Shown: one piece after another, positions 5,479 to 58,882 of the stretch
How the letters are laid out: each line of letters starts with the position of its first letter
Numbering within the stretch: the stretch's first letter is position 1
Origin: an uncultured Bacilli bacterium
GTDB lineage: Bacteria; Bacillota_I; Bacilli_A; RFN20; CAG-826
Reading direction: 5' to 3'
NCBI GenBank assembly: GCA_934168325.1
Contig: CAKPNG010000004.1
Location: forward strand, 873 to 64,872
Length of the DNA: 64,000 nt
Program-made: the position numbers and the translations under genes
Notes under the pieces: model-generated
What the model was told of the DNA's origin: nothing
The model's database searches: none
Seen by the model: the letters and a program-made list of their open reading frames with translations, nothing else

Positions 5479-5510
5479 CCTTAGTTTTGCAGGGTTTTCA
5501 AAAAAAGGAG
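5479..5510 (+). repeat. Copy A of the dispersed GGTTYTGCARGGTTTT motif family
   Basis: CCTTAGTTTTGCAGGGTTTTCAAAAAAAGGAG. The core at 5484-5499 is one mismatch from the 14-mer at 44060 and 58808. The extended match to the copy at 14711-14746 covers CTTAGTTYTGCARGGTT...TCAAA..AAGG. Confidence 0.6.
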
Positions 5511-5517
5511 ATACTTT

Positions 5518-6339
5518 ATGAAAAAAGGAAAGAAATTAGCTTTATCATTATTGCTTCCTTTATTGATGTCAAATGCACCAATGCCTAGTCCTTATAGCCC
5601 AGAATTTGAAATTGATCGTGTTACAAATGAACACATTACTTTTGCATTAAATTCAGCTGGTGATGAATTAACATGTATATTTAAAAATTCACTAGATGGT
5701 ATTGTTGATTCTTTATTTTTAGAATGCTTAGATACTAATATAGCATTAATTAAAAGATATAATGGAACAACATTAATTCCTAAAAATTCTACCTATAAAT
5801 TTACTTTAAAAAACACCAAAGATTCAATTTATAATTTTGAACAAATTCAAAACTATGATAATTTAAAAATTTATGGTTCTTATTATAAAAGTGAAGATAT
5901 TTATACTGAACTTGACTTATCATATCGTTTTGAAGTTAATACTGACTTAGAAACAGGCAAAACAACCACTACTTGTTATACTAATATATATGTAGAAAAA
6001 GTTACTACTTTTATTTCTGATGCTCTATTTTATATAGCTGAAGATAATGTAACACCAAATAATACTTATTCTGCATATATTAGAGCATACAAAGATGAAA
6101 CAATAAATTATAAGGATTTTAAAATTACTTTTGATCGTGAATTAGCAAAAGACACTAAAATCAATTGTGTCTTATTAAAAGGAAACGATTATTATAATAG
6201 AAGACATGAGAAATCTGAAAGACAATTAAAAATATTATATATTTATTTATCAATTCTCGGTGTTACTGTTATTGGTACTATCATTTATCTTTCTATTTTT
6301 TACTATAGAAAACACAAAAGCAAACAAAAACTCAAATAA
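5518..6339 (+). CDS. Secreted/type-I membrane protein of unknown function
   Basis: RBS AAAGGAG lies 8 nt upstream. There is an N-terminal signal-like segment and a C-terminal TM helix followed by the basic tail YYRKHKSKQKLK. Confidence 0.55.
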   Translation: MKKGKKLALSLLLPLLMSNAPMPSPYSPEFEIDRVTNEHITFALNSAGDELTCIFKNSLDGIVDSLFLECLDTNIALIKRYNGTTLIPKNSTYKFTLKNTKDSIYNFEQIQNYDNLKIYGSYYKSEDIYTELDLSYRFEVNTDLETGKTTTTCYTNIYVEKVTTFISDALFYIAEDNVTPNNTYSAYIRAYKDETINYKDFKITFDRELAKDTKINCVLLKGNDYYNRRHEKSERQLKILYIYLSILGVTVIGTIIYLSIFYYRKHKSKQKLK

Positions 6340-6720
6340 ATATATAATTGATAAAATTAAGCATATTACAAAATAAGTGTTATTATTAGCACTTATTTTT
6401 ATTATGTAATTTAAAATTAATCCAACTACTAAAGATGCACTATTACTAATAAAAGATATGATTAAACATTTTAATATCGATCCATATAATTTTAAAATTT
6501 TTATAACTAGTGCTTCTAATAAAAAGACTATAATTTCGCCTACAATCAAAAACCATAATGCATTATTTGTTAAATATTCATAACACAAATTAAAGCTTAC
6601 ATTACTAATAACGTTCATTATTAATAAAATGATAAAATATAAAAAACTTTTTTTTAATAAAAAGAAATAGATAGGTGTTTCAATAACTAATGTTACTAAT
6701 AAGGGATAAATTAATTCCAT
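6250..6720 (-). CDS. Small polytopic membrane protein, unknown function
   Basis: 156 aa with 4-5 hydrophobic helices. No obvious SD. Its 3' end overlaps the convergent gene by 90 nt. Confidence 0.45.
   Translation of the reverse strand: MELIYPLLVTLVIETPIYFFLLKKSFLYFIILLIMNVISNVSFNLCYEYLTNNALWFLIVGEIIVFLLEALVIKILKLYGSILKCLIISFISNSASLVVGLILNYIIKISANNNTYFVICLILSIIYLFEFLFAFVFSIVKNRKINDSTNNSNTEN
6371..6400 (+). terminator. Hairpin terminator of the 5518-6339 gene, embedded in the convergent ORF
   Basis: AAAATAAGTG-(10 nt)-CACTTATTTT forms a perfect 10-bp stem followed by TTATT. Confidence 0.5.
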
Positions 6721-6730
6721 ATTTAATAAA

Positions 6731-6757
6731 AATAATGAGGTTCTGCAAGGTTATTTA
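6731..6757 (+). repeat. Copy B of the dispersed motif family
   Basis: AATAATGAGGTTCTGCAAGGTTATTTA. The 17-mer at 6740-6756 is identical to the reverse complement of 14725-14741. Copy B also matches 44050-44071 at 20 of 22 positions. Confidence 0.7.
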
Positions 6758-6865
6758 TAAAATAAGTAAGTTTTTGAAAGAAATTTTATCATTAAAAACT
6801 TTAATAGATTTAAAATAACTCTTATAAAAATATTATAAACCTAACAAATATTATTCTCACTCAAT

Positions 6866-6939: not shown

Positions 6940-7731
6940 TTAAGCTTTTTCACTATAATTACTAGGATTTAATTTAGTTCCACTATATTCCTTATAAGTA
7001 TCATAAGAATAATTAAATGTTGATTGAGAATAATTATAATTTGTATTATCCATTAAGCTATATAAAACAGTAGATTTACTTTTAATAATTTTATTATCTT
7101 TAATAGTTAAATAGTCTTCTCTTTCATATTTAACAGCAACAGTTTTACTACTATATTGTTCATATATTAAATATAATCTAACTTCTCCATCTTTTGATAA
7201 ATCGACATCATGATAATTATATTCAAATTTATATTTTATTGATTCATTTGAATCAATAAAATTCTTACATACATCATATCCACCACCAAGATAACTTCTA
7301 GAAAATCCAACACTTAGATTATCTTCACTATATTTTTCATCATAGTTAGCATATATAACATAATTATTAGGATCATCTTTACCATAATCTCTAATTAAAT
7401 AAAATTTATTATCTTTAATACCTACTTCTTCAGTACCACTTATTTTATCAGTTTCATAAGTTTGAATAAAATCAGCTTTAACAAAATTATCTTTATATCT
7501 AATTTTAGTATTATCTTCTTTTACTTTAACAGTTATTGCGCCATAATAATTTTCATCAGTTTGTGTACCTTCTTTTTTAGAGCAATCTTCACTTAAAGAT
7601 ATTAATTTATTTTTAAATTTAGTAATAAATTGATCTTCAGTTTCAACTGTTGGAGTATCTTTCTTATTACAAGAAACTAATAAATTAATAGATATTAAAG
7701 AAGTTAATAACAATAAATAATTATGTCTCAT
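6940..7731 (-). CDS. Lipoprotein, unknown function
   Basis: Signal peptide with lipobox LLVSC. I prefer the start at Met12 of the track ORF (ATG at 7731), which has GAGG 9 nt upstream and lies 4 nt after the upstream stop. Confidence 0.65.
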   Translation of the reverse strand: MRHNYLLLLTSLISINLLVSCNKKDTPTVETEDQFITKFKNKLISLSEDCSKKEGTQTDENYYGAITVKVKEDNTKIRYKDNFVKADFIQTYETDKISGTEEVGIKDNKFYLIRDYGKDDPNNYVIYANYDEKYSEDNLSVGFSRSYLGGGYDVCKNFIDSNESIKYKFEYNYHDVDLSKDGEVRLYLIYEQYSSKTVAVKYEREDYLTIKDNKIIKSKSTVLYSLMDNTNYNYSQSTFNYSYDTYKEYSGTKLNPSNYSEKA

Positions 7732-7735
7732 TTTA

Positions 7736-9574
7736 TTAAGCCTCAATTTTAAATCTATGGACATAATCAGTTAAATTAACACTTAAAGTAATTAATTCAC
7801 CATCTAAAGTAATTTCTCCTTCAGTATATCCATAGCTTGGATTATCTGAAGTTATAGCAATATTAAATTTAGTTCCACTCATATTATAAGTAAATGTAGT
7901 AGTACTTATTAAAGAATTATCTTCTCTATTATAATATTCAATAGTTCCATTAGTTTTACTACTAAATTTCATAACACCATCAAAAGCACTATATATACTC
8001 TTATATCTATAAGTACTACTTAATACCTTGTTAGCTAATTCTTCTTCAGTTAATTTAATTTTAATAGTATAAGTAACACTTACTTTAATTTCAGGATTAG
8101 TTTCACTATAAAAAGTAATCACTAAATCTTTACTTTCTTTAATATCATTAACATCTAATTGATAATTTATATATCCTTTGCCTTCTTCAACTTTTTTAAT
8201 AGTAGCTAAAGAATCATCGCTTAATTTAGCTTTTATAGCGCTATAATCAACACCATTTACATTAGGAAATACATTAACTCTTAAATTCTTATAAGTAGTT
8301 TTAGTAAATATAACTTTATTCTTTTCTCCACTAATAGCTCCACTATAAGTATCAGTAAATGTCAATTTAGTTAATTTAGGTCTAGCTACTTTAACACTGA
8401 TATTAAAACTAATTCCACTATTACTTTCTAAAACTATATTAGCATCACCAAAGTCTTTAGCATATAAGGCATCACCACTTAATTCATAACTAGTCTCATT
8501 ATCTATAGATTTAACATTCATTGTTAAATCTATTGCTTTACTAGGACTATATGTTTTAGCTTCAAATTTAATATATTTTTCTATTGGTAAAGCATCAAAT
8601 TCACAATATACTTTCTTACCATTATCATAATAATATGCACTAACTTCTTTAACTTCAGTTAAATAATAATTCATTAGATCAGGACGAGCTTCGTTTAATG
8701 TAGTTGAACTAATTCTATCTTCATAACTAACTTCATAACTATAATTAACATTAACTTCATATTTATCATTATCACTTCTAGTTTCACCAGTATAACTAGA
8801 ATAATTACTACTAATAAATCTACCTTCATTATCAAAATTAACTTCAAAAGAATAACTAATCTTAATATTTATACCTTCTTCTGTATAACTATAAGAATAA
8901 TCAGTTAATGAATAAGTAACAAAATTATTATCTTTAATAACTTTTTTAGCTTTAATATTAGCTCCACTAGCATTTAAATCGATATTATTAACTAAATTAG
9001 CATTAATAAAATTAGATGTATATAAACTAGCTTGTTTAGATAATTGACTAGGAACACTTTTTTCAAGTAAATAACTTATTCCATCTTCACTATCTTTACC
9101 ATTATTATAAACAGGTAATTGATAAGAAGAATCGACCCAAGTAGAAGATTCTATTCCATTTTTTTCATAATCAGTAATTAAAAAGAACGCTCTAAAAGTA
9201 TCAGTAGAAGATTCACTATTTTTATAAGTAGCAACAGTAGCAAATTTTAAATAATTATCACTAATAGTTTTATTTTCTTTTTTATAAGTTAAACTTCTAA
9301 ATCCATTAGATATAGTCATCTCATCATTATAAATAATTGTTTCTTCATTAATAATTTCTTTAGAAGATGTTTTATCTGTTTCTTCTTTATATTTAACTTT
9401 ATTAGAAGTACTAACTTCTATTTCATAAGCACTACTTAATTTATTAATAACTTCATCTAAAGCTACTAAAGTTTCTTTATCATCACCATTATTATTTTCA
9501 TTATTATTACAAGAAAATAATGAAATAGAAATTAAACTCATTACTGGTAAAATTATTGCTCTTTTTAAATTCAT
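7736..9574 (-). CDS. Lipoprotein with Ig-like (BIG2-type) domains and a C-terminal beta-rich domain
   Basis: RBS GAGGAGG and lipobox SLFSC. It shares its domain order with the 727-aa neighbour. Confidence 0.65.
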   Translation of the reverse strand: MNLKRAIILPVMSLISISLFSCNNNENNNGDDKETLVALDEVINKLSSAYEIEVSTSNKVKYKEETDKTSSKEIINEETIIYNDEMTISNGFRSLTYKKENKTISDNYLKFATVATYKNSESSTDTFRAFFLITDYEKNGIESSTWVDSSYQLPVYNNGKDSEDGISYLLEKSVPSQLSKQASLYTSNFINANLVNNIDLNASGANIKAKKVIKDNNFVTYSLTDYSYSYTEEGINIKISYSFEVNFDNEGRFISSNYSSYTGETRSDNDKYEVNVNYSYEVSYEDRISSTTLNEARPDLMNYYLTEVKEVSAYYYDNGKKVYCEFDALPIEKYIKFEAKTYSPSKAIDLTMNVKSIDNETSYELSGDALYAKDFGDANIVLESNSGISFNISVKVARPKLTKLTFTDTYSGAISGEKNKVIFTKTTYKNLRVNVFPNVNGVDYSAIKAKLSDDSLATIKKVEEGKGYINYQLDVNDIKESKDLVITFYSETNPEIKVSVTYTIKIKLTEEELANKVLSSTYRYKSIYSAFDGVMKFSSKTNGTIEYYNREDNSLISTTTFTYNMSGTKFNIAITSDNPSYGYTEGEITLDGELITLSVNLTDYVHRFKIEA

Positions 9575-9594
9575 AAATCCTCCTCTTATTTAGC

Positions 9595-9622
9595 CAAAAG
9601 ACACGAATAAATCGTGCCTTTT
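9595..9622 (-). terminator. Stem-loop between the 727-aa and 612-aa lipoprotein genes
   Basis: On the minus strand, AAAAGGCACGA-(5 nt)-TCGTGTCTTTT forms a stem with one G-U pair, and the U-run ends the stem. Confidence 0.4.
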
Positions 9623-9654
9623 AGTTTAACATATTTTCTTAATTAAAATCGACA

Positions 9655-11838: not shown

Positions 11839-12032
11839 AAATCCCCCTTAAAAGTAATCAATTGTCAATCTTTGATAACTTGTTAACTATTTTATATTGT
11901 TTATTCATCTTTTTTTGATTTATTTTTATCGTTAATATTGTATTAATAAAATTTAAAAAACCTTGATAAAATCATTTATATTTATATTTTTTAATAATAA
12001 ATATGACCTTAAATAATGCTATTTTTAAAATT

Positions 12033-13991: not shown

Positions 13992-14057
13992 AATTTCTCC
14001 TTGATATACATTATATATATAAAATAAAAATTAACATTAAATTATTAAAATAAAGAA

Positions 14058-14078
14058 AAAGTAGTTATTCACTACTTT
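14058..14078 (-). terminator. Terminator of the opp operon
   Basis: On the minus strand, AAAGTAGT-GAATA-ACTACTTT forms a perfect 8-bp stem followed by TTTCTTTATTTT. It overlaps the stop codon at 14077. Confidence 0.55.
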
Positions 14079-14937
14079 ATTCTTTAATTTTAATTGTTTT
14101 ATCAATATTACCATCAACTTCAATTGCTTGATTTAATAACAATTTACAATGCATATCATATGTATTTTCAGATTCTTTTGATTCATATGTTCCATCATAA
14201 ACTAAATTAGTAATTACATTTTTATCATTAAATGAACAAGTAACATTACAATCAAAGATAATTTGTTGATAAGTAAATTGAACAGTTCCTTTTAAAGATA
14301 TTTCATCTTTTTTACTAATAAAATAAGTTTTATCTTTAATATTATTAATAAAATCAGTAGTTGCTCGATTATTATTAACACTATTATTAATCATATTAGA
14401 TAAACCATTTTGATAAGAAGAAATAGATTGCTCATTATTAATAGTTTGAGTTTTAAACTCTTCATTTTTATAAGTATTAGTAATTAAAGTTTTATCTTCT
14501 TTATTAAGATAATTTTCTTCAAAAGTACCACTAATTTCTTCGCCTGGATTATTAGTAGATTTATCACTTATTTGACTAATATTTTCTTGATAGCTATAAA
14601 AATCATCTTTATTAGAATCACCTAAGAATCCAAGATAAGTAATTTGAGTAAAATCAAACTTAATATCTTTACCTTCTTCATTTTTTGTATTAGATAAAAT
14701 AGATAATTTAATGCCTTGTTTGAAAAATAACCTTGCAGAACTAAGCTCTTTTTCTTTATTTTCATTAAAAGCCTTATTAAATTCTTCTTCAGTAATATCT
14801 TTCTTTTTCTCTATTTTATTAACTAAATAATCTTTGAAATTAGAACGAGCTAAAATTTTATTAGTTTCTTTTTTATCACAAGAAACTAATGTAAAAATGA
14901 AAAAAAGAGTTAATATTAATGTTAGCTTTTTATTCAT
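14077..14937 (-). CDS. Lipoprotein co-transcribed with and coupled to oppF
   Basis: Lipobox TLVSC. Its ATG lies 2 nt after the oppF stop. Confidence 0.65.
   Translation of the reverse strand: MNKKLTLILTLFFIFTLVSCDKKETNKILARSNFKDYLVNKIEKKKDITEEEFNKAFNENKEKELSSARLFFKQGIKLSILSNTKNEEGKDIKFDFTQITYLGFLGDSNKDDFYSYQENISQISDKSTNNPGEEISGTFEENYLNKEDKTLITNTYKNEEFKTQTINNEQSISSYQNGLSNMINNSVNNNRATTDFINNIKDKTYFISKKDEISLKGTVQFTYQQIIFDCNVTCSFNDKNVITNLVYDGTYESKESENTYDMHCKLLLNQAIEVDGNIDKTIKIKE
14711..14746 (-). repeat. Copy G of the dispersed motif family (inside a coding region)
   Basis: The minus strand reads GCTTAGTTCTGCAAGGTTATTTTTCAAACAAGGCAT. It shares an exact 17-mer with copy B. Confidence 0.7.
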
Positions 14938-24664: not shown

Positions 24665-24726
24665 AATTCTTACCTCCTTTAATATAAAATAAACAAAAAT
24701 ATTACATTCTATTTATGCTTTGTAAA

Positions 24727-24747
24727 TATATAACTTTTTAAGTTATA
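24727..24747. promoter_or_regulatory. Perfect palindrome in the oppA leader
   Basis: ATATAACTT-TTT-AAGTTATAT lies about 60 nt upstream of the oppA ATG. Confidence 0.35.
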
Positions 24748-24802
24748 TTTTTAATAATGAAATATCTATTAATGAAAAATTAATAAATATTCAATAGTAT
24801 TG

Positions 24803-24811: not shown

Positions 24812-24819
24812 CACTTTTT

Positions 24820-31058: not shown

Positions 31059-33305
31059 CTAGATTTTTCTTTCTCTATATATACCAATATAGTTATGAGC
31101 AAAGCTATTTAAGAAATAAAGTATTAATCCAGACTCATTTTTATAGAATGTTTGAGTTATAACTCCATCACTATTATAGTTATAATCATAAACTGGCCAA
31201 TCAGTATTATTTTCAAATGCTTTTAAGATATTAGCATTAGCTAAAGCAGCATTATTCATAGCGGTATTTCCATTTGATGCATGATATATAATATGAATTA
31301 ATACACGATCACTACTACCATCATAATATTCGCTAACTTCAAAATCTTTTTCATCTTGAATACCAGTTATAGTTGGAAGAGTTACTTCTTCTTGGAAACG
31401 ATAATTAAGTAATTCTTGAACTTTTGAATATTCAGTTAGTCCTGAATAAGTCTTTTTATAACTAATAACCATAACTAGATAAGAAATACCATATGTTTTA
31501 TTAGTTGAATATAAGAATTGAATTGTAAATCTACCATCTTTTGAAGTAGCTTTATAAACTCCAGAAGTACTATTTAATGTAACAGTCCATCCAGCTTGTT
31601 CTAATTTTTCTTTATATTCGCTAGATATATCGTTGCTCATTTCAATTTGTAATTGATAACTTGTTTCAGTAATAGATATTTTACCAGTACTAGCATCTTG
31701 AGTTTTATATTTTCCAAAATAATAACTTGATCCATTAGTAATTTCAGGAATAGTTGGGATTTCTCCTCTAGTATTTTGATTTAAAAATGCATTTATATCA
31801 TCTTTTGGGAATGAGGTAGCAAATTGAGCTAAACCAACACTACAAGCAATTACACCTCTATTTACATTTTTATATATTGGATAATTTTGTAAGAATGTAG
31901 TTTTAGAAAAATAAGTTAAGATAATGAATGTTGTATCATTAGGATTAATTAAATAAGCATTTCCATTACCTACTGATTTAGATTTCCATCCTTTTCTAAC
32001 TAATTCTAAGAAATATGTTTCTAAATCATCATTACTTAAATTAATCATAAAATAATTTAGACCAATTCCATTACGACTATTCATGTTATAGCCAGCTCGA
32101 TAGAAAATTGTATCATAAATTCTATTTTCTAATCTAGGAACGCTTTCAAGTAATCCACCAAAATATGTTTCAGATAAATCGACTGAACTATATTGATAAG
32201 AAATATCAGTATTAAGTAATGAATAAAGTAAAACTTGAATATTTTTATTTTTAGCAACATATTGCATTTGAATTCTAAATGTACCTAAAGGATCCATAGC
32301 TCCTTTACCATCACTATTTGAGAAATTAAATGTTGTTAAACCTAATTTTTTCTCTAAGAAATTTGCTAGATAGTTGACACCATTTGATGTATCATCTTCA
32401 CCTACTTTTTTAGTAGTATCTGGTTTATAATATATGACACTTGCTGGTAATCCATTATTAGTTAAATAGGTTCTAGCACTCATAATATTCTTGCCAGAAT
32501 CTTTTAAAACCCCGTCAAACGAAGATATTTTTGTTAAATTTACATAACGACCTTCACTAGCAAATATATGTACTGGAAGTTTATCTTTTTCTTTATATTC
32601 TTTATCATCTAGATAACTTACTTTGACATAAAATTCTTCGTTATTTTCTGCATCAACACCGAAATTTAAATTGAATTCGTAATTAGGATTTATTGCTTCA
32701 TAATATTCATTCTTTTTAACTTCGTTAACTTTATAGCCAGCTTTTGCTAGTTTTTCTTTATAAACAATAATATTAGAATAATCTAGATTTTCACCATAAA
32801 TATAAAATGATCCATCACTACTTATTTTATGTGTATAAACTGTACTATAGAAGAAAGGAACACAATCTGTAACATAATAATTACCTAAATAACTTCTAAG
32901 TCCAGCGACTTTTCCCATCTCTTCTTCATCACCAGTACTTGCACTATTATCTAATATAACTTGATTAACCCAATCGCCTGTTTGTTCAGTTAAAATCCAT
33001 CCTGCATAAACGTCAATTGAAGCATTAACAATACTATTTTTATAGAAAACATTTTCTTTAGTTAAATTAGTTGCACTACTTATATCTTTATACCAATTAA
33101 CAAAAGTATATTCACCATTAACTCTACTAGGAGTAAATAATTCAGTGATCTTACTACCTTTTTTATAAGACTCTACTTTAGTTGTATGTAATTCATCTTG
33201 AAGGTGATAAGTAATAGTAATATCTTTATTTTCATCATTACAGCTTACTAATGAAAAACTGCTTATAATTAATGATAACCCTGCTAAAATAAATTTATTT
33301 TTCAT
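31059..33305 (-). CDS. Lipoprotein with an N-terminal Listeria-Bacteroides (Flg_new-type) repeat and about five internal alpha/beta modules
   Basis: Lipobox SLVSC. GEYTFVNWYKD...IDVYAGW is typical of Flg_new. The repeated modules are KEKLAKAGYKV..., ELVRKGWKSK... and KEKLEQAGWTV.... Confidence 0.65.
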   Translation of the reverse strand: MKNKFILAGLSLIISSFSLVSCNDENKDITITYHLQDELHTTKVESYKKGSKITELFTPSRVNGEYTFVNWYKDISSATNLTKENVFYKNSIVNASIDVYAGWILTEQTGDWVNQVILDNSASTGDEEEMGKVAGLRSYLGNYYVTDCVPFFYSTVYTHKISSDGSFYIYGENLDYSNIIVYKEKLAKAGYKVNEVKKNEYYEAINPNYEFNLNFGVDAENNEEFYVKVSYLDDKEYKEKDKLPVHIFASEGRYVNLTKISSFDGVLKDSGKNIMSARTYLTNNGLPASVIYYKPDTTKKVGEDDTSNGVNYLANFLEKKLGLTTFNFSNSDGKGAMDPLGTFRIQMQYVAKNKNIQVLLYSLLNTDISYQYSSVDLSETYFGGLLESVPRLENRIYDTIFYRAGYNMNSRNGIGLNYFMINLSNDDLETYFLELVRKGWKSKSVGNGNAYLINPNDTTFIILTYFSKTTFLQNYPIYKNVNRGVIACSVGLAQFATSFPKDDINAFLNQNTRGEIPTIPEITNGSSYYFGKYKTQDASTGKISITETSYQLQIEMSNDISSEYKEKLEQAGWTVTLNSTSGVYKATSKDGRFTIQFLYSTNKTYGISYLVMVISYKKTYSGLTEYSKVQELLNYRFQEEVTLPTITGIQDEKDFEVSEYYDGSSDRVLIHIIYHASNGNTAMNNAALANANILKAFENNTDWPVYDYNYNSDGVITQTFYKNESGLILYFLNSFAHNYIGIYRERKI

Positions 33306-33317
33306 ATTTCAATCCCC

Positions 33318-40095: not shown

Positions 40096-41969
40096 TTTAA
40101 ATCACCTTTTTTAATATGAATTATTAAAGCATTAATATCACTTGGATTTACTCCACTAATTCTACTAGCTTGTCCAATATCTTTTGGTTGAACTTTATTA
40201 AATTTTTGTCTAGCTTCTAAAGCTAAGCAATCTAATTTAGAATAGTCAAAATTTTCTGGTAATTTAATTGATTCTAATTTCTTTGCTTTTAAAGCTTCAG
40301 CTCTTTCATTTTCAATATATCCAGCATATTTAACTAAAATTGATAATTGTTTTTCACCTATTGGATCTAATTTAATATATTCTGGATAATCAATCATATA
40401 TTCTTTTAAACGAGAAAAAGTTACATTATTTCTTTTTAAAATATCTTCATAGGTTACACCATTTTCAAGTCTTTCGTATCCTAGTTCGACCAAATAATCA
40501 TTAACTTTATTAGTTCTTCCAAAGTGGTTATTTTTTAAATAATCCAGCAAAACTAAAATATTTTTCTTCTTTTCGATAAATTCATCATATCTAGATTGAC
40601 TAATTAAACCTAATTTATAGCCATATTCTGTAAGTCTTAAATCAGCATTATCATGTCTTAATAAAAGTCTATATTCAGCTCTACTTGATAATAATCTATA
40701 AGGTTCTTTAGTTCCTTTTGTAATTAAATCATCAATCATAACACCAATATAAGCTTCATCTCTATTTAAGATAAATGGAGGTAAATTTTTAATATATTGT
40801 CCAGCATTAATACCAGCCATTAATCCTAATCCAGCGGCTTCTTCATAGCCACTAGTTCCACAAATTTGACCAGCAATAAATAATCCTTTATATTTTTTAA
40901 CCATTAATGATGTATCAAATTGAGTTGGATCAAGAGCATCATATTCAATAGCATAAGCATATTTTAAAATTTTAGCATTTTCTAATCCTGGTAAAGAATG
41001 AACCATTTTATCTTGAATATCAATTGGCATAGATGTAGAAAATCCTTGTAAATAAATACTATTAGTATCGTAACTTTCAGGTTCTAAAAATAATTGATGA
41101 CGTGGTTTATCACTAAATCTAACTATTTTATCTTCAATTGATGGGCAATATCTAGGACCAACACCTTTAACTAATCCACTATACATTGCACTTTCAAGTA
41201 AATTATCTTTAATAATTTTATGAGTTTCAGGAGTTGTATAAATTAACCAGCAAGGGATTTGTTCTGAAATAGGAATAAAATCATGATCTTCATAAGAGAA
41301 TCCTTCATCTTCAACATTTCCTAATTGAATTATACCTTTTGAAAAATCGATACTTTCTTTAGCAATACGTTGAGGAGTGCCAGTTTTAAGTCTAATAATT
41401 TCAATACCCATTCTTTTTAAAGAATCGCTTAACCCAATTGATGGCTTTTCTCCATCTGGTCCACCAACTGTTTTATTATGGCCTACAAGTATCTCACTAT
41501 TCATATAAGTACCAGTTGCTAAAATAACAGCTTTTGAAAAAATATCTTGGTTTTGCGAGGTTTTTACACCAAAAACAGTACTTTCATCATAAAGTAAATC
41601 AACAACCATATCTTCTAAAATATCAAGATTTTTGGTTTCTTTTAAATGCTCTTGGATATAATGAGGATATCTTTTTTTATCAGCTTGAGCTCTTAAACAT
41701 TGAACTCCAGGTCCTTTTTTAGTATTGAGCATTTTCATTTGTAAGTATTCATGATCAGCTGCTTTGCCCATAAAGCCACCAAGAGCATCAATTTCTCTTA
41801 CAACAATACCTTTTGCACTTCCACCAATTGATGGATTACATGGCATATTGGATACCATTTTAAAATTTAAAGTAATTAAAAGAGTTGCAAATCCTCTATT
41901 TGCACAAGCTAAAGAAGCTTCTACACCTGCGTGTCCTCCACCAACTACAATAACATCATATTTTTTCAT
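40092..41969 (-). CDS. mnmG: tRNA uridine 5-carboxymethylaminomethyl modification enzyme MnmG (GidA)
   Basis: FAD motif YDVIVVGGGHAGVEA, NPSIGGSAKG and GQICGTSGYEEAA. Confidence 0.95.
   Translation of the reverse strand: MKKYDVIVVGGGHAGVEASLACANRGFATLLITLNFKMVSNMPCNPSIGGSAKGIVVREIDALGGFMGKAADHEYLQMKMLNTKKGPGVQCLRAQADKKRYPHYIQEHLKETKNLDILEDMVVDLLYDESTVFGVKTSQNQDIFSKAVILATGTYMNSEILVGHNKTVGGPDGEKPSIGLSDSLKRMGIEIIRLKTGTPQRIAKESIDFSKGIIQLGNVEDEGFSYEDHDFIPISEQIPCWLIYTTPETHKIIKDNLLESAMYSGLVKGVGPRYCPSIEDKIVRFSDKPRHQLFLEPESYDTNSIYLQGFSTSMPIDIQDKMVHSLPGLENAKILKYAYAIEYDALDPTQFDTSLMVKKYKGLFIAGQICGTSGYEEAAGLGLMAGINAGQYIKNLPPFILNRDEAYIGVMIDDLITKGTKEPYRLLSSRAEYRLLLRHDNADLRLTEYGYKLGLISQSRYDEFIEKKKNILVLLDYLKNNHFGRTNKVNDYLVELGYERLENGVTYEDILKRNNVTFSRLKEYMIDYPEYIKLDPIGEKQLSILVKYAGYIENERAEALKAKKLESIKLPENFDYSKLDCLALEARQKFNKVQPKDIGQASRISGVNPSDINALIIHIKKGDLK
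41549..41567 (+). repeat. Looser copy F of the dispersed motif (antisense inside mnmG)
   Basis: GGTTTTGCGAGGTTTTTAC. Confidence 0.35.
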
Positions 41970-43808: not shown

Positions 43809-45021
43809 CTAAAAAATCTCCTCCAGTCTTTAAGGCTTCATATAAAGAATCAATCTCTTCTTTTGTATTATAAAAATAAAAACTTATTCTTACTGTAGCT
43901 ACAGTATGTAAAAATTCATGTAAAATTTTAGCGCAATGTTCACCACTTCTAACACATATACCTTTACTATTTAAGTAGCTAGCTTCATCTTGAGCAAAGA
44001 CATCTTTTACATTAATAGTGATAATTGAACCTTCTGCATTTTCGTTATAAATAATGACGTTCTGCAGGGTTTTTAATTTATTTATGGCATATTTTCTTAA
44101 TTCAGCTTCATATTTTTCGATGTTTTCCATACCTAAATTATTTAAATAATCGATAGCAGCACCTAAGCCATATATGCCAGCTAAATTCATAGTTCCAGCT
44201 TCAAATTTTGCAGGTGGTTCTAAAAATGCAACATTTCCACACATATCAAATCTAGCATTATTTCCACCACCACTCATAAATGGATCAGTCTTTCTTAATA
44301 AATCATATTTACCATATAAAACACCAATTCCAGTTGGTCCACACATTTTATGAGCACTAAAGGATAAGAAATCACAATCTAAATCTTTAACATCTATTTT
44401 CATATGAGGAACACTTTGAGCTCCATCTACTACTAAAATAGCACCATGTTCATGAACAACTTTAGCAATTTCTTTAATATCAGCTAAGAAAGCTAATACA
44501 TTAGTAATTTGAGCTAAAGCAACAATTTTAGTATTTTTTGTAATAGCACTTTTTACTGCTTCAACTGTCAATCTACCTTCTTTATTTAAAGGTATATAAT
44601 TGATTTTACAATGAGTTATTTCTTTAACTTTAAACCAAGGTAAAACGTTACTTGCGTGTTCTGCTTCAGTTAATAATATCTCATCATTTTCAGTCATATA
44701 TTTTATACCATAACCAAAAGCGACTTGATTTATAGACATTGAAGTACCACTAGTAAAAACTACTTCTTCCTTATTAGCGTTAATAAATTTGGCAACTTTA
44801 GTTCTAACTTCATCAACTTTTTGATCAACTTTAAAAGCTAAATCATAATCTCCACGATGTGAATTAGCATTTTCATTTAAATAATATTCATCACTAGCTT
44901 TTATAACTGAATATGGTTTAAAAGTAGTAGCAGCACTATCAAAATATATTAAATCATGACCTTGTTGAGTCTTATTTTCTAACATTGGGAAATCTTTTCT
45001 TATTTTATAAACATCAAACAT
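43792..45021 (-). CDS. sufS: Cysteine desulfurase SufS (class II aminotransferase V)
   Basis: YFDSAATT, the PLP-Lys motif SAHKMCGPTG and the catalytic-Cys region RSGEHCA. I prefer the start MFDVYKIRKDFPML, though the track start at 45048 is possible. Confidence 0.9.
   Translation of the reverse strand: MFDVYKIRKDFPMLENKTQQGHDLIYFDSAATTFKPYSVIKASDEYYLNENANSHRGDYDLAFKVDQKVDEVRTKVAKFINANKEEVVFTSGTSMSINQVAFGYGIKYMTENDEILLTEAEHASNVLPWFKVKEITHCKINYIPLNKEGRLTVEAVKSAITKNTKIVALAQITNVLAFLADIKEIAKVVHEHGAILVVDGAQSVPHMKIDVKDLDCDFLSFSAHKMCGPTGIGVLYGKYDLLRKTDPFMSGGGNNARFDMCGNVAFLEPPAKFEAGTMNLAGIYGLGAAIDYLNNLGMENIEKYEAELRKYAINKLKTLQNVIIYNENAEGSIITINVKDVFAQDEASYLNSKGICVRSGEHCAKILHEFLHTVATVRISFYFYNTKEEIDSLYEALKTGGDFLDAYFA
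44050..44076 (+). repeat. Copy C of the dispersed motif family (antisense inside sufS)
   Basis: AATAATGACGTTCTGCAGGGTTTTTAA. The 14-mer TTCTGCAGGGTTTT at 44060-44073 is identical to 58808-58821, and copy C matches copy B at 20 of 22 positions. Confidence 0.7.
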
Positions 45022-45025
45022 ATCT

Positions 45026-46795: not shown

Positions 46796-46843
46796 AGAAA
46801 AAGCTATTTGAAAGGTAGTTATATTTTTAGGAGGAAAAACGAG

Positions 46844-54823: not shown

Positions 54824-55798
54824 CTAATTTTGATTAATGAACGAACACTTATTTTTCATTTCAAAAACTATTAATTCTTTTTTATTAAGATCTTCTTTAA
54901 ACATATCTATCTTATTAATATCAAAAGAATCATAAGTTTTATAATACATTATTCCTTTATTAACATTATAACAATCACTATAAATTGTATATTCATACAT
55001 ATTTTTATTTACTTCACAAACTCCTTTTTGTTGTTCAACACTTAATAAAATATGAAAGAATTGATTAACAGAAGTTTCTTCGTCCATTCCTTTTAATGCA
55101 TTCTCCTTAGTAAATAAAACCTTAATAAATCTAGACATACTAGATAAATCTCCAGGTATACCAATAGCACCTTGTCCTCTAGAATAATCTATTAATTTAA
55201 GTTTTTTAGAGAACTCATTTTTAGGATTTTTATTAGACATCTTCATGTAGTTATTTACATTAAAAGATTGAATTTCAAAAGGTGGATTATTAGTTAAAAC
55301 TCCATAAGGATTATCAAATATTTTAATACCATCTTTTCTTATTTCTAATACTATTGATTGACGATTATCACTTATTAAATAATGTAATTGAGAAGGCTTT
55401 AAATTTTCACTAAACCCTTCTTTAGTTACATTAATTTTCTTGAATAGAGTTTTCACTTCTTTTATATTTTGACAATTAATTAAGATATAAGGAATAATTT
55501 CAAATGAGGTGATATTTGTCTTATTTTCTATATAATTATTATAAACTGTATTACCTGCAAAATTTAATCCAGCTATACATAATCCTTTCTCGTTCATTGC
55601 ATCATAAAATAATGGATAATCATTAATTACATGAGCCACTCCAATTATTGCATAATGATTATCATTTGAATCTAAATGTCTAAATTTAAAATTATAATTT
55701 CTAGGACAAATTACAATCGATTCACCATAAGAAAAATCATAATCCAAATTACGTCCAAAATAAAAATCATTACTATTAAATGCTAAACCAGTACACAT
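54824..55798 (-). CDS. Choloylglycine hydrolase family Ntn amidase (bile salt hydrolase / penicillin V acylase-like)
   Basis: MCTGLAF gives Cys2 as the nucleophile after Met removal. Also FGRNLDYDF, about 324 aa, and NPPF near residue 170. Confidence 0.8.
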   Translation of the reverse strand: MCTGLAFNSNDFYFGRNLDYDFSYGESIVICPRNYNFKFRHLDSNDNHYAIIGVAHVINDYPLFYDAMNEKGLCIAGLNFAGNTVYNNYIENKTNITSFEIIPYILINCQNIKEVKTLFKKINVTKEGFSENLKPSQLHYLISDNRQSIVLEIRKDGIKIFDNPYGVLTNNPPFEIQSFNVNNYMKMSNKNPKNEFSKKLKLIDYSRGQGAIGIPGDLSSMSRFIKVLFTKENALKGMDEETSVNQFFHILLSVEQQKGVCEVNKNMYEYTIYSDCYNVNKGIMYYKTYDSFDINKIDMFKEDLNKKELIVFEMKNKCSFINQN

Positions 55799-55869: not shown

Positions 55870-56166
55870 ATGGAACAAAATGAATTAATATTTGGAATTA
55901 AACGTTTTATAAATAAAATTAGATTTTATAGTCAGACTCGAACATGCGAAGAATTATTAAACGATCAATTATCATTTGATGCAATATGTTATTGCTTAAT
56001 AATGCTTAATTATTGTTTAGATCAATTAGATGAAAAGTTACTAAAAGAATTAAATTTAGAAACATTAAAAGATAACATTACTAAAGCAATTAAGATAGGT
56101 GAATATATAAATATTGAAATTTTAAATAAATTATTAGTTGATATAATACCTAATTTAAATATTTAA
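55870..56166 (+). CDS. Small helical protein, possibly a degenerate DUF86/HepT-like domain
   Basis: The helix pattern IKRFINKIRFY...LNDQLSFDAICYCL...LDQL resembles DUF86. At the position of the RX4HXY nuclease motif it reads KAIKIGEY, and the protein contains no His. Confidence 0.3.
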   Translation: MEQNELIFGIKRFINKIRFYSQTRTCEELLNDQLSFDAICYCLIMLNYCLDQLDEKLLKELNLETLKDNITKAIKIGEYINIEILNKLLVDIIPNLNI

Positions 56167-56175
56167 ATTTTAAAA

Positions 56176-56203
56176 AATAATAAGGGTTTTGCAGAGTTTT
56201 TAA
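56176..56203 (+). repeat. Copy D of the dispersed motif family (intergenic, between convergent genes)
   Basis: AATAATAAGGGTTTTGCAGAGTTTTTAA. It can also pair with AAAAACCTCT at 56206-56215, so it may double as the ffh terminator. Confidence 0.5.
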
Positions 56204-57541
56204 CTAAAAACCTCTAAAATTTGGTGGTAATCCACCAGATTTTTTATATCTATTCATCTGCTTCATCATTTCTTTAGATTGCTCATATTTCTTTAAAACT
56301 TTATTAATATCAGCAGCAGTTTTTCCACATCCTTTAGCAATTCTAACTTTACGAGAATTCTTTATTATTTCAGGATGAATCTTTTCTTCATAAGTCATTG
56401 AATTTAAAATTATTTCAAAGTTTTGCATTTCTTTTTCAGCCATTTCTTGTTGTTCTTTTGAAATTTTAGGCATACCTGGAATTAATTTTAAAAGTCCACC
56501 AAGACTACCAAGTTTTTTAATTTGTTTCATTTGATCAAGCATATCAATTAAAGTAAAGTTGCCACTAGTAAATTTCTCAACTGATTTTTTAGCTTGTTTT
56601 TCGTCGATGTTATCTTGAACTTTTTCAACAAGAGTTAAAACATCACCCATGCCTAAAATTCTACTAGCCATTCTATCTGGATAGAAAATATCTAAGTCAT
56701 CAAGTTTTTCACCAACACCGATAAATTTAATAGGAACGCCAGTTACTTCTTTAATTGATAAAGCAGCACCACCTCTACTATCGCCATCAAGTTTAGACAT
56801 GATAGTACCAGTTAAGCCAAGTAATTCATTAAAAGTTTTTGCGACATTAACACTATCTTGACCAGCCATAGCATCAGTTAATAATAATATTTCATCTGGA
56901 CTTAAGTTAGCTTTAATATTTTTAAGTTCATCCATCAATTTTTCATCAATTTGAAGACGACCAGCAGTATCAATAATTAATACATCATAATGAGAATTAT
57001 AAGCTTCTTCTTTAGCTTTAGTTGCTATTTCTACTGGATCAACTTTATCTCCCATTGAAAATAAAGGGACATTTATTTTTTTAGCGATTTGAGCTAATTG
57101 ATCGATAGCACCAGGTCTATAAATATCACAAGCAGCAAGAAGAACTTTCTTTTTAAGCTTATCTTTCATTAATTTAGCAAGTTTACCTGCAGTTGTAGTT
57201 TTACCACTACCTTGTAAACCAACTAACATAATGATTGTAGGTTTATTTTTATTATAATGAAGTTCACTACTATCACTACCTAATAATACTATTAATTCTT
57301 CATTAACAATTTTAACAAGCATTTCGCTTGGATTTAATTCAGTAAAAACTTTTTGTCCGATTGCTTTTTCTTTAATTCTATCTAAAAATGTTTTAACTAC
57401 TTTATAGTTAACATCTGCTTCTAATAAAGCTACTCTAATCTCTTTTAACATAGAGTCCATATTAGACTCTGTTAATTTAGCTTCACCTTTAATAGTTTTA
57501 AATATTCGTTTAAATTTTTCAGTTAAATTTTCAAATGCCAT
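56204..57541 (-). CDS. ffh: Signal recognition particle protein Ffh (SRP54)
   Basis: GLQGSGKTTTAGKLA, DTAGR, TKLDGD, and a Met-rich M-domain. Confidence 0.95.
   Translation of the reverse strand: MAFENLTEKFKRIFKTIKGEAKLTESNMDSMLKEIRVALLEADVNYKVVKTFLDRIKEKAIGQKVFTELNPSEMLVKIVNEELIVLLGSDSSELHYNKNKPTIIMLVGLQGSGKTTTAGKLAKLMKDKLKKKVLLAACDIYRPGAIDQLAQIAKKINVPLFSMGDKVDPVEIATKAKEEAYNSHYDVLIIDTAGRLQIDEKLMDELKNIKANLSPDEILLLTDAMAGQDSVNVAKTFNELLGLTGTIMSKLDGDSRGGAALSIKEVTGVPIKFIGVGEKLDDLDIFYPDRMASRILGMGDVLTLVEKVQDNIDEKQAKKSVEKFTSGNFTLIDMLDQMKQIKKLGSLGGLLKLIPGMPKISKEQQEMAEKEMQNFEIILNSMTYEEKIHPEIIKNSRKVRIAKGCGKTAADINKVLKKYEQSKEMMKQMNRYKKSGGLPPNFRGF
56216..56246 (+). terminator. Terminator for the plus-strand small ORF, embedded in the last codons of ffh
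   Basis: AAAATTTGGTGG-TAAT-CCACCAGATTTT, with 11 of 12 positions paired, followed by TT. Confidence 0.5.
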
Positions 57542-57543
57542 AA

Positions 57544-57861
57544 CTAATATAACTCCTTAAATATCTTTTCTTTAATCTTTTCAGTAAGATTTTCTTCATC
57601 TAATAATTTATTAAGATTAGAATATTTTTCATTTAATTTTAATTTATTTTCATATTCAAATAAATTATTTTTAGCATGATTTAGTGCATCTGATATTGCA
57701 GTTCTAGAAATATGTAAAATATCAGATATTTCACTTAAAGATAAATTATATAAATAATATTTATCCATTATTTCTATTTGTCTAGGAGTTAATAAATTTT
57801 TATATAATTCATATAGTTTATTAATATATTCAAATTCTTCAATATCACTCATCTTCATCAT
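57544..57861 (-). CDS. ylxM: YlxM (UPF0122) small HTH protein of the SRP operon
   Basis: LTPRQ..., LSLSEISDILHISRTAISD (a sigma-70 region-4-like HTH) and its position between ftsY and ffh. The start could instead be Met4 at 57852. Confidence 0.75.
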   Translation of the reverse strand: MMKMSDIEEFEYINKLYELYKNLLTPRQIEIMDKYYLYNLSLSEISDILHISRTAISDALNHAKNNLFEYENKLKLNEKYSNLNKLLDEENLTEKIKEKIFKELY

Positions 57862-58882
57862 CTAATAACTCTTTACATAATCCATATAAGTATTTATTTA
57901 AATCAAATACTTCTAAATCATCAATTTTTTCACCTAATCCCATAAATTTAACAGGGATATTTAATTCATCTTTAATAGCTAAAATAATACCACCTTTACT
58001 AGTGCCATCCATTTTAGTTATAACAATTCCATTTATATCAATTAATTCTTTAAAAGCTTTAGCTTGTAATACACCATTTTGACCAGTAGTAGCATCTAAA
58101 ACTAAATAACAATCGATAGGTTCTTTAATTTCTTTAGCAACAACTCTTTTAATTTTAGATAATTCATCCATTAAATGAGATTTATTTTGAAGTCTACCAG
58201 CTGTATCAATAATTATTAAATCATAATTATTTTCTTTTCCATATTTTACACCACTATAAGCAACACTAGCTGGATCTTCATTATCTTTACCAGTTACAAT
58301 TTCTGTATTTAATCTATTAGCCCATACAATAAGTTGTTCTTTAGCTCCAGCTCTAAAAGTATCAGCAGCAACTAATAATACTTTTTTACCCATTTTAATA
58401 TATCTATTAGCAAGTTTAGCAATTGAGGTAGTTTTACCAACTCCATTAACTCCAACTACTAATAAAACATGAGGTGTATGGGTGAAATCTAAATCAATAA
58501 AATTAGAATCTTCATCTTTATAATAATTAGAAAACATTTTAGTAATTAATAATTCATTAATTTTATTAGTATCCGTTATTTTTTCTTTTTTAACAGTATC
58601 TACTAAGTCTTCAATAATATTTAAAGTAAAATTAACACCACAATCAGCTTCAATTAATATCTCTTCTAAATCATTAAAATAATCTTCATCAATCTTTTTA
58701 GATTTAAATTTTTTATTTAATACTTTGATTCTATTAGAAAAATTTTCTCTAGATTTAGCTAATCCAGAATCATATTTTTTTACTTCATTTTCTGAATTTT
58801 GTTTGGATTCTGCAGGGTTTTCTAAATTATTAGCCTCTTTTTTCTTATCAAACTTATCTTTTAAAAACTTAAATAATCCCAT
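57845..58882 (-). CDS. ftsY: SRP receptor FtsY
   Basis: Amphipathic N-terminus MGLFKFLKDKF, GVNGVGKTTSIAKLA, DTAGR and TKMDGT. Confidence 0.95.
   Translation of the reverse strand: MGLFKFLKDKFDKKKEANNLENPAESKQNSENEVKKYDSGLAKSRENFSNRIKVLNKKFKSKKIDEDYFNDLEEILIEADCGVNFTLNIIEDLVDTVKKEKITDTNKINELLITKMFSNYYKDEDSNFIDLDFTHTPHVLLVVGVNGVGKTTSIAKLANRYIKMGKKVLLVAADTFRAGAKEQLIVWANRLNTEIVTGKDNEDPASVAYSGVKYGKENNYDLIIIDTAGRLQNKSHLMDELSKIKRVVAKEIKEPIDCYLVLDATTGQNGVLQAKAFKELIDINGIVITKMDGTSKGGIILAIKDELNIPVKFMGLGEKIDDLEVFDLNKYLYGLCKELLDDEDE
58803..58824 (+). repeat. Copy E of the dispersed motif family (antisense inside the variable N-terminal region of ftsY)
   Basis: TTGGATTCTGCAGGGTTTTCTA. Its 14-mer at 58808-58821 is identical to 44060-44073. 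Confidence 0.65.

Follow-up and report, generated by a model that had tools for sequence, protein, structure and literature searches.

A clade-restricted, dispersed ~45-bp DNA signal in low-G+C gut bacteria, tentatively read as a DNA-uptake sequence

Results

The dispersed repeat found in the window, i.e. in the whole stretch of 64,000 nucleotides from an uncultured Bacilli bacterium that was analyzed here, is real and represents, locally, a DNA signal of ~45 bp that occurs throughout the genomes of a whole clade. Namely, the motif is restricted to one clade of low-G+C gut bacteria and is over-represented genome-wide, with copies in essential genes, too, while its coding copies, as gap-free alignments indicate, arose by substitution and not by insertion. 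A signal of the USS/DUS type, which would be maintained by biased DNA uptake and recombination, is the explanation that we tentatively favor.

An earlier, sequence-only reading of the window had claimed a dispersed DNA-level repeat in intergenic and coding DNA, and the identities between sites that it quoted all proved exact on recheck. The post-hoc pattern GTTCTGCARGGTT has, at up to 2 mismatches, 8 matches in the window against 1.38 expected from dinucleotide shuffles, and GTTCTGCAAGGTT, at the same tolerance, has 7 against 0.72 in 300 codon shuffles. As a look-elsewhere correction, all 12-mers (up to 1 mismatch, both strands) were compared with a frame-aware codon-usage expectation. In this whole-window scan, the 12-mer GTTCTGCAGGGT occurs five times against 0.033 expected (p=3e-10) and ranks second among the over-represented 12-mers of the window, the first being an A+T palindrome; the top words of 24 codon-shuffled windows reach p=2e-8 to 1e-5 at best. 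One can argue that A+T-rich composition and codon usage produced the repeat by chance, since the pattern was chosen by the earlier reader after the data were seen, and since an order-2 Markov model yields words with p~1e-10 or lower in codon-shuffled windows, too. However, the corrected scan puts the word far beyond the null, and the scan of a genome collection with its Markov expectation, described below, gives an enrichment of ~1e5-fold or more per genome, in one clade only. Chance origin is thereby refuted, with hardly any probability left to it.

The repeat was also recovered by a position weight matrix (PWM) that was trained on copies from other genomes and then run on the window: it finds seven strong sites with scores of 22.9-37.7, against a null maximum of 14.7 in 40 shuffles. 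Seven of the eight sites listed by the earlier reading thus belong to the family, while the remaining one, at 45565-45590, has no PWM score above 12 and is no member. The unit, put at 20-30 nt in that reading, is in fact ~45 nt long. Its consensus, given on the strand opposite to the earlier one, is aaatttcTCAAAAACCYTGCARAWCTCAACTATTTTTGTAAAAA, i.e. a G+C-rich core AAAACCYTGCARAWC followed in fixed phase by a TATTTTT tract, with A/T tracts flanking both sides. The motif is asymmetric and non-palindromic, its copies share more than 36 bits of information, and it folds weakly (-2.7 and -5.5 kcal/mol). Neither terminal inverted repeats nor target duplications nor a stable hairpin were seen in the unit, and a comparison with Rfam gave no family for the window or for six motif-rich loci. 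Within a single genome, spacer copies are near-identical across ~42 nt with unrelated flanks, and genomes have core variants of their own, for example CAGATC in CAYLSZ01, CAAATC in RGIG4904 and CAGAAC in SUG1359. A proposed link of CTGCAG to methylation loses weight, CTGCAA and TTGCAA variants being equally common.

Three of the seven strong window copies are intergenic. The best of all, TTTTATAAATAACCTTGCAGAACCTCATTATTTTTATTAAATA at 6720..6762 (minus strand, PWM 37.7; earlier placed at 6731), lies immediately upstream of ORF 6250-6720 (-) and fits the strict 25-nt pattern of the genome scan. The copy TTTTTTTGAAAACCCTGCAAAACTAAGGTTTTTTAAGAATTAT at 5464..5506 (minus strand, 30.7; earlier 5479) is found 96 nt past a U32 peptidase gene (3119-5392, +) and 22 nt before ORF 5518-6339 (+); it can form a weak AAAACC/GGTTTT hairpin, and its first 21 nt equal those at 5480 of L129, a non-orthologous position in another species (L numbers designate related sequences). 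The copy AACTCTGCA at 56166..56208 (minus strand, 23.8; earlier 56176), with one core mismatch, is situated in a convergent-gene spacer and starts 6 nt past the stop codon of ffh (56204-57541, -). Within sufS (43792-45048, -), the copy at 44039..44081 (minus strand, 36.1; earlier 44050) reads K-T-L-Q-N-V-I-I-Y on the sense strand via the rare codons ACC, CTG and CAG, and a partly decayed copy at 41530..41572 (minus strand, 28.9; earlier 41549) in mnmG (40092-41969, -) reads AAA ACC TCG CAA AAC, or K-T-S-Q-N, likewise in sense. The copy at 58787..58829 (minus strand, 22.9; earlier 58808) in the N-terminal region of ftsY (57845-58882, -) gives E-N-P-A-E-S, also on the sense strand, in a frame unlike that of the sufS and mnmG copies. 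Finally, at 14719..14761 (plus strand, 32.8; earlier 14711) in the lipoprotein-like ORF 14077-14937 (-), AACCYTGCA is antisense to the ORF, the gene strand reads ...ELSSARLFF..., and a 17-mer is held in common with 6740-6756.

Four further sites are borderline, being either decayed or proto-copies (PWM 12-15, 0.07 expected): AATCCAGCAAAAC...TATTTTT at 40531..40573 (plus strand, 15.3 against the null maximum of 14.7), antisense in mnmG, with AATCCTGCAAAAC at the orthologous place in L001; AAAAACCTTGCTAAACC at 1581..1623 (plus strand, 14.8), antisense in a Na/sulfate-symporter-family gene (382-1824, -) and also a 2-mismatch match to the post-hoc pattern; AAAAAGCCCTCAAAAACC...ATTTTT at 63256..63298 (minus strand, 13.5), intergenic between the convergent genes 62532-63257 (+) and 63310-63975 (-); and ATAACCCTGCTAAAAT at 33267..33309 (plus strand, 12.4), also a 1-mismatch match, at the 5' end of a surface-protein gene (31059-33305, -).

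The genome-wide count against a Markov expectation, which the sequence-only reading had set as its test, shows massive over-representation. For the strict 25-nt pattern AWAACCYTGCARAWCNNNNNTATTT, an order-3 Markov model predicts 3e-4 matches in a 1.3-Mb genome; run against 185,579 species genomes, the pattern gave at least 120 matching blocks. Among the matches listed, ~110 of 120 blocks came from ~21 low-G+C gut or rumen MAGs labeled "Bacilli / Mollicutes / Ca. Onthovivens", with at least 26 copies in SUG1359, 18 in CAYLSZ01, 14 in RGIG4904 and 10 in Ca. O. merdipullorum, and ~10 were single matches in unrelated taxa, which is the chance rate. The 2.9 million viral contigs of IMG/VR hold one match only. 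In unbiased loci, the density is ~1 per 9-13 kb, and the copy number is on the order of 100 per genome.

Genomic context was analyzed in blocks picked for holding a strict match. Here, 113 of 181 core copies are intergenic, though intergenic DNA makes up 10% of the 1.0 Mb sampled (a ~10-fold enrichment). Spacer copies lie at a median of ~31 nt from the 3' end of the upstream gene and ~100 nt from the next start codon, many of them 1-40 nt from a stop codon. Orientation is unbiased: the 68 coding copies divide into 34 sense and 34 antisense, co-directional spacers hold 25 sense and 35 antisense copies, 15 copies are in divergent spacers, and no strand bias relative to GC skew was detected (G-rich strand 70, C-rich strand 80, p=0.46). 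Inverted pairs that could form terminators are scarce (4 of 113 spacer copies), and the copies showed no preference for certain gene classes or promoter distances. Coding copies occupy stop-free frames, giving KTLQNSxIF or [KE]N[PL]AELxYF, while antisense ones mostly give KI[VI]E[FI]C[KR]VF, with a few stop-avoiding variants in other frames.

The motif inside sufS, mnmG, ftsY, a HAD phosphatase and an FGGY kinase is accompanied by no indels relative to homologues. In particular, sufS and mnmG align gap-free with motif-lacking orthologues, as do the motif-encoded peptides of the phosphatase and the kinase with PDB homologues. Conservation in relatives, which had also been proposed as a check, was found at sufS and mnmG, at the N-terminus of ftsY and past the 3' ends of ffh and tpiA, across species whose MnmG is ~80% identical to that of the window. 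The sufS copy is kept in L001, L005, L006, L141 and L209, where L002/L003 have ACT TTG CCA AAC instead, free of indels; the mnmG 41530 site is an exact AAA ACC CTG CAA/G AAC (KTLQN) in L005, L006 and L209, L002/L003 having lost it; and the ftsY N-terminus has orthologous 1-mismatch copies (AAC CCT TCA GAA) at position 10061 of L127 and L129. In the spacer downstream of ffh, L129 has the motif, L127 a degenerate copy, L231 an inverted copy and L128 none, so that presence and orientation turn over within one orthologous spacer. Absence or decay is lineage-wide in L002/L003, L004 and L128.

Discussion

Of the three candidates put forward by the earlier reading, the uptake-like signal fits best, although we hold it with less than even confidence. 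Under this explanation, a surface or DNA-import component would prefer DNA bearing the word, because of which better-matching fragments would enter the cell and recombine at a higher rate; point mutations that bring a site nearer the consensus would then spread ("molecular drive"), and copies would build up where tolerated, chiefly just downstream of genes and also in stop-free coding frames. Biased uptake and recombination as the driving force is what we infer from the pattern of copies. To our knowledge, self-recognition DNA-uptake signals are known to date only from Haemophilus and Neisseria, and we know of no member of Bacillota for which sequence-specific uptake has been reported. Of a competence apparatus, DprA alone was seen, the gene being widely conserved, and a search for prepilin and ComGA motifs, together with Pfam on large membrane ORFs, returned nothing in a clade sample of ~1.2 Mb, too small to inform.

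A close parallel is the USS of Haemophilus influenzae and other Pasteurellaceae, whose architecture is a core with phased A/T tracts. The motif likewise has a G+C-rich core followed by such tracts, extreme genome-wide over-representation in both orientations, copies within genes in tolerated frames by substitution, and distribution across a family with subtype variants. It differs in belonging to Bacillota rather than Pseudomonadota, in being known here from sequence alone, in its length (~45 nt versus ~30), in its density (~0.1 versus ~0.8 per kb) and in a much stronger intergenic bias. With the DUS of Neisseriaceae it shares lineage-specific variants of one word, a surplus shortly past gene ends, inverted pairs that in some cases make terminator-like hairpins, and depletion outside the host chromosome. 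However, DUS are 10-12 nt long, very often paired, present at ~1 per kb and recognized by the minor pilin ComP, whereas the motif is seldom paired and its receptor purely putative. That said, known uptake signals are shorter and less uniform than the unit, which counts against the uptake explanation, as do the scarcity of inverted pairs and a density roughly ten times below that of USS/DUS. The genome-specific variants parallel the DUS dialects described in one report (PMC3630211), and, according to another, uptake sequences are embedded in coding regions of USS/DUS genomes (PMC2817400).

The main rival, possible and in our view unlikely, takes up the protein-binding site among the earlier candidates. 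The copies would serve a sequence-specific chromosomal protein (a global regulator, or a factor for nucleoid organization, occlusion or segregation) as an array of high-affinity binding sites, ~100-200 of which would be kept by selection in each genome, while the variants of each lineage would come from protein and site evolving together. A long asymmetric footprint, phased A/T tracts suggestive of DNA bending, the copy number, the unbiased orientation and the variants particular to each genome would all suit such a protein, and so would sites within genes that change by substitution, as those of Noc, SlmA and ParB do. What is more, the window has parAB and, at up to 2 mismatches, no canonical parS, and therefore unusual chromosome-organizing sites are conceivable. 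Noc-, SlmA- and ParB-type sites also number tens to hundreds and are orientation-independent; they are, however, 14-16-bp palindromes of modest information content in specific chromosomal zones, whereas the motif is far longer and more uniform and, unlike parS, NBS, SBS and matS, non-palindromic. Namely, ~150 sites in ~1.3 Mb need ~13 bits, while the copies share more than 36, and therefore drive to one consensus fits better than selection for adequate binding. The protein would also have to explain copies forced into conserved enzymes despite available spacers, the lack of a tie to gene classes or promoter distances, and loss from whole sister lineages, unexpected for a core structural system. 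Clearly less probable is a drive that differs from classical transformation and biases transfer or repair by sequence in some other way. It could be a packaging or initiation signal, used by a gene-transfer agent, by transducing particles or in conjugation-like transfer of the chromosome, or else gene conversion or repair directed by sequence. Its signature would be that of uptake (substitution spread, intergenic excess, genome variants, lineage loss), the data being indifferent to how DNA is moved, but signals for packaging and origins of transfer are usually polar, with few of them in a genome, IMG/VR gave a single match, and we know of no repair system recognizing ~45 nt.

Taken together, intergenic excess, indel-free coding copies, unbiased orientation, rare pairing, dialects and absence from some sister lineages all but rule out mobile relics, terminators, Chi-like signals and known RNAs. 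If the motif were a miniature mobile element (MITE-, REP/REPIN- or RPE-like), duplicating itself into spacers and, with the frame kept, into genes, this would account for near-identical ~42-nt spacer copies, for a ~21-nt indel spanning the core in some spacers (window versus L128) and for a few inverted doublets. Such elements are also short dispersed repeats, REP being mostly extragenic and Rickettsia palindromic elements (RPEs) occurring in frame within genes as well; yet they are palindromic or terminal-repeated and insert with indels, whereas the motif lacks a hairpin, terminal inverted repeats and target duplications, is too short to accommodate the ends by which known elements are recognized, is kept at orthologous places in different species and shows no insertion in four independent genes. 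The relic of a tiny mobile repeat suggested earlier is thus contradicted for the coding copies, and we regard the mobile explanation as very improbable. No better placed is an RNA-level motif (an element of 3'-UTRs or terminators, or a target of sRNAs or of an RNA-binding protein): the proximity of many copies to stop codons and the ability of the 5484 and L127 copies to form hairpins followed by T runs would fit it, but sense and antisense copies are equally frequent, divergent spacers hold copies, folding is weak, pairing rare and Rfam silent. A Chi-like or FtsK/SpoIIIE-guiding polar sequence is less probable still. In the window, the leading, gene-sense strand carries 6 of the 7 copies, and about one copy per 10 kb is a Chi-like density, Chi and KOPS/SRS also being over-represented words conserved in relatives at ~1 per 5-10 kb; those words are, however, 5-8 nt long and strongly co-oriented with replication, and the larger sample has no strand bias relative to GC skew or gene direction.

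Finally, HIP1 (GCGATCGC) of cyanobacteria is an 8-nt palindrome of very high density linked to methylation, whereas the motif is long, asymmetric and A/T-flanked; both are clade-specific words spread by substitution through coding and non-coding DNA.

Enrichment of the motif within the window

The sequence-only reading had singled out a dispersed repeat on the strength of identities between individual sites, and on re-checking these identities were all found to be exact. Because the pattern had been picked post hoc, simple pattern counts (8 against 1.38 expected, and 7 against 0.72) were not relied upon. An order-2 Markov null for the look-elsewhere effect was likewise discarded, since it underestimates codon-biased words and yields p-values of about 1e-10 or lower in codon-shuffled windows as well. 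In its place, codon usage, reading phase and strand supplied the expectation for each 12-mer, with at most one mismatch allowed. With this frame-aware null, GTTCTGCAGGGT is seen 5 times against 0.033 expected (p = 3e-10) and is the second most over-represented 12-mer in the whole window, while the best words of 24 codon-shuffled windows reach only p = 2e-8 to 1e-5. In other words, the enrichment of the repeat that had been claimed for the window is real, and the scan places it far beyond what codon-shuffled windows produce. A matrix trained only on copies that lie outside the window finds seven strong and four borderline sites within it and rejects the site at 45565, which had been put forward as a looser copy and is not a member of the family. 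The most over-represented 12-mer of the window is an A+T palindrome, TTTATTAATAAA, with 60 occurrences against 21 expected in the same frame-aware count at up to one mismatch, a figure inflated by the double counting of palindromes.

Definition and distribution of the motif

The consensus of eighteen instances reads AAAAACCYTGCA-RAWC-N5-TATTT. Patterns of 15 nt or less proved useless in large collections: viral contigs scanned with a 15-mer gave at least 120 single matches (loci L007-L126), all of them chance, and a 25-position pattern was therefore used instead. This pattern carries approximately 36 bits, which corresponds to an expectation of 3e-4 matches per 1.3-Mb genome. In the one-genome-per-species collection it matched at least 120 eight-kilobase blocks, and among those listed approximately 110 come from about 21 assemblies of a single clade, at 25-33% G+C and originating from the guts of humans, pigs, chickens and ruminants. 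Among the matches listed, single assemblies contribute up to at least 20 different blocks, and about ten single matches fall in unrelated taxa of higher G+C, which is the chance rate. Strict copies number at least 26, 18, 14 and 10 in four metagenome-assembled genomes (MAGs), so that the 25-nt pattern is over-represented genome-wide by orders of magnitude, while the whole of the IMG/VR viral collection holds one match. Chance is excluded by these enrichment results.

Within one genome, spacer copies agree over approximately 42-45 nt (aaatttcTCAAAAACCCTGCAGAACTCAACTATTTTTGTAAAAA) and have unrelated flanks. Positions that the pattern leaves free show A/T tracts to either side of the core, and the preferred variant differs from genome to genome. 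With 7 copies in its 64 kb, the window has a density of about one per 9 kb; in unbiased loci, 0-4 core copies are found for every 21-22 kb. The assembly CAYLSZ01, at 33% G+C, is dense in the motif (as many as 3 strict copies in 8 kb; loci L134, L154, L156 and others); its place in one clade with the other carriers is clear, and therefore its label, "uncultured Staphylococcaceae bacterium", is probably a misclassification.

Genomic context and orientation

Context statistics were gathered from blocks chosen for holding a strict match, in which genes were called by a simple long-ORF rule and spot-checked with Pfam and PDB. In these blocks (1.0 Mb), 113 of 181 core copies lie in the non-coding 10%, in co-directional, convergent and divergent spacers alike and in either orientation, closer to the upstream stop codon than to the downstream start codon. 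In the motif-rich assembly SUG1359 (locus L207), one copy, at 125, begins approximately 5 nt past the 3' end of a tRNA gene (23-110), which shows how tightly copies can be packed into a spacer. The 68 coding copies are split evenly between sense and antisense (34 each), in frames that are stop-free in the consensus, and a few sequence variants dodge stops in the other frames.

Neither replication nor transcription imposes a polarity on the motif, and both orientations are present, as in the uptake signals of Pasteurellaceae (USS) and Neisseriaceae (DUS). In particular, orientation shows no bias when set against the local GC skew (70 against 80, p = 0.46). A polar motif of the Chi or KOPS type is rejected on account of this lack of co-orientation and of the conserved length, approximately 45 nt as against 5-8 nt. 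Intrinsic termination is likewise rejected as a general role: most copies are unpaired, with an inverted core within 90 nt in only 4 of the 113 spacer copies, 35 of the 60 co-directional spacer copies are antisense (25 sense), 15 copies sit in divergent spacers, and 68 are in genes.

Copies within genes and across relatives

The closest MnmG and FtsY sequences belong to uncultured gut MAGs labelled "Mollicutes bacterium", "Bacilli bacterium" and "Candidatus Onthovivens", and the species of the window is approximately that of GCA_034117605.1; an exact look-up of the window's SufS returned no record. The mnmG region was compared with that of five relatives and the ftsY region with that of three. 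The copy in the N-terminal part of ftsY is conserved at the orthologous position, as are those downstream of ffh and tpiA. The spacer after ffh varies among species, with the motif present in some, degenerate or inverted in others, or lacking altogether. What is more, the window copy at 5496 has 21 identical bases with a copy at 5480 of locus L129, a non-orthologous place in another species.

The copies in sufS (43792-45048) and mnmG (40092-41969) both read AAA ACC CTG CAR AAC, that is, K-T-L-Q-N in rare codons, in unrelated enzymes and in several species. Together with the orthologues from loci L005, L006 and L209, SufS and MnmG have the peptide KTLQN(L/S)xI(Y/F) in common because of the motif, whose DNA in the two genes matches, in some species, at as many as 23 of 24 nucleotides. 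Here a signal at the DNA level has clearly left its mark on protein sequence. A common peptide motif as the origin of the repeat is out, as its copies fall in three different frames and on both strands. In two lineages (L002/L003 and L004), both the sufS and the mnmG copies have been lost or degraded with no insertion or deletion. In SufS, MnmG, a HAD phosphatase and an FGGY kinase, the peptide that the motif encodes can be aligned gap-free with orthologues or with homologues of solved structure, which indicates that the word was written into these four genes by substitution and not inserted. Spacer copies are ambiguous on insertion, with one indel of approximately 21 nt seen.

Possible function of the motif

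A literature search found no paper with the word or with an uptake signal in this clade, matches to the sequence string being unrelated primers, and the family appears to be undescribed so far. Elements of the REP/REPIN, MITE or RPE type would be expected to fold and to insert. The consensus folds weakly (-2.7 and -5.5 kcal/mol) and lacks an internal dyad, palindrome or terminal inverted repeats, and the four coding cases are free of indels. Judged on these alignments and folds, a mobile-element relic is excluded, at least for the coding copies, and we consider a miniature mobile element very improbable as the explanation of the family as a whole. Known RNA families are excluded: Rfam gave no family for the window at gathering score and, with E allowed to reach 1, no match that overlapped a motif copy in any of six motif-rich loci. 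An RNA element of whatever kind seems slighter still as a prospect. By eye, the motif does not fit the consensus spacings of CodY, cre, Cheo, CtsR, CIRCE, sigma-54 or sigma-70 sites. The main rival that we see, namely that the copies form an array to which a chromosomal protein binds sequence-specifically, is a serious one, even if we think it rather unlikely; it would imply a genome-organising system whose site is unusually long and uniform, and it would not be of the parS or Noc-binding type (14-16-bp palindromes related to TGTTNCACGTGAAACA or ATTTCCCGGGAAAT), given that the motif is non-palindromic.

These rejections leave the need for a directional force under which many unrelated sites converge on a single long consensus. 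Such a force must act in any orientation and wherever change is tolerated, and must be able to vanish in a sub-lineage. Biased DNA uptake followed by recombination, which would drive sites towards the consensus as it does for USS and DUS, is the one well-understood process with that signature. We put the chance that the motif is a USS/DUS-type signal, maintained in this way, at only a little below even; a different transfer or repair drive strikes us as improbable. Like USS and DUS, the motif is common to related species with lineage-specific variants (about 21 assemblies, among the matches listed), and its in-gene copies have arisen by substitution, in frames that the protein tolerates. Two published accounts describe embedding in coding regions (PMC2817400) and dialects (PMC3630211) for USS/DUS systems.

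By this analogy the motif would work like a known kind of signal, yet it differs from that kind in phylum, length, density and pairing. Namely, it occurs in Bacillota, its unit is longer, it is roughly tenfold sparser than the approximately one copy per kilobase of USS/DUS, and inverted terminator pairs, whose frequency is mainly a DUS feature, are few (the 4 of 113 spacer copies mentioned). The lower density, the longer unit, the few inverted pairs and the lack of a Bacillota precedent all count against the uptake reading. So does the import apparatus, of which only DprA was seen, in sampled loci of relatives: prepilin and ComGA motifs or a ComEC-like ORF were found nowhere in approximately 1.2 Mb of scattered clade DNA, a sample too small to indicate absence.

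Textbooks hold that Gram-positive bacteria import any DNA, and to our knowledge sequence-selective uptake is confined to two proteobacterial families, with no precedent in Bacillota. If the motif is an uptake word in gut Bacillota, this view would be overturned, frequent recombination within the clade would be implied for organisms that are uncultured, and the receptor could be found by profiling motif-positive against motif-negative lineages. We suggest, tentatively and by analogy, that this may be a "self" DNA word of the uptake-signal type, the first outside Pseudomonadota, with the Ca. Onthovivens/"Mollicutes bacterium" clade engaging in sequence-selective natural transformation. Such a system, on which we lean slightly to the doubtful side, would comprise a signal of approximately 45 bp, its own lineage dialects and a putative receptor, in a genome-reduced, uncultured clade of gut and rumen Bacillota. 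Be it an uptake signal or a protein site, the motif measurably constrains protein sequences, including SufS, MnmG and FtsY. As an uptake word, it would also serve as a clade- and lineage-specific marker for binning and for recognising foreign DNA in MAGs, and as a sequence to include in constructs when transforming the first isolates.

Other features of the window

At 25.8% G+C, the window can be read cleanly in the standard bacterial code, with most of its genes on the minus strand. The mnmG-rsmG-parA-parB cluster at 37822-41969 is the usual origin-proximal cluster in Bacillota; despite parA-parB, the 64 kb contain no canonical parS (TGTTNCACGTGAAACA), even with 2 mismatches allowed. The cumulative GC skew drops until approximately 60 kb, where gene orientation switches. 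A local reversal of the skew is due to two adjacent plus-strand ORFs of about 650 aa each (46808-48748 and 48684-50633), on the strand opposite to their neighbours, which are kept in all relatives as paired ORFs of approximately 600-690 aa and have no Pfam family.

Unusually low G+C (18-21%) marks the region 5518-6720 and that at 12-14 kb. The former holds two convergent hypothetical ORFs, 5518-6339 (+) and 6250-6720 (-), which overlap by 90 nt and have no Pfam match, and at least one of which may be mis-called. Many large surface- or lipoprotein-like genes with Big_2, LRR_5 and Listeria-Bacteroides repeat domains lie at 6940-14937 and 21797-37692; they have similar DNA for a lipobox-type signal peptide (repeat family D10) and adjoin an Opp-type oligopeptide ABC transporter. 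A choloylglycine hydrolase of the bile-salt hydrolase family (54824-55798, minus strand, E = 7e-95) fits a gut habitat. Finally, in locus L005, from a relative, a structured, G+C-rich leader at 14140-14290, between parB and the gene for an ECF-transporter S component, looks like a riboswitch.
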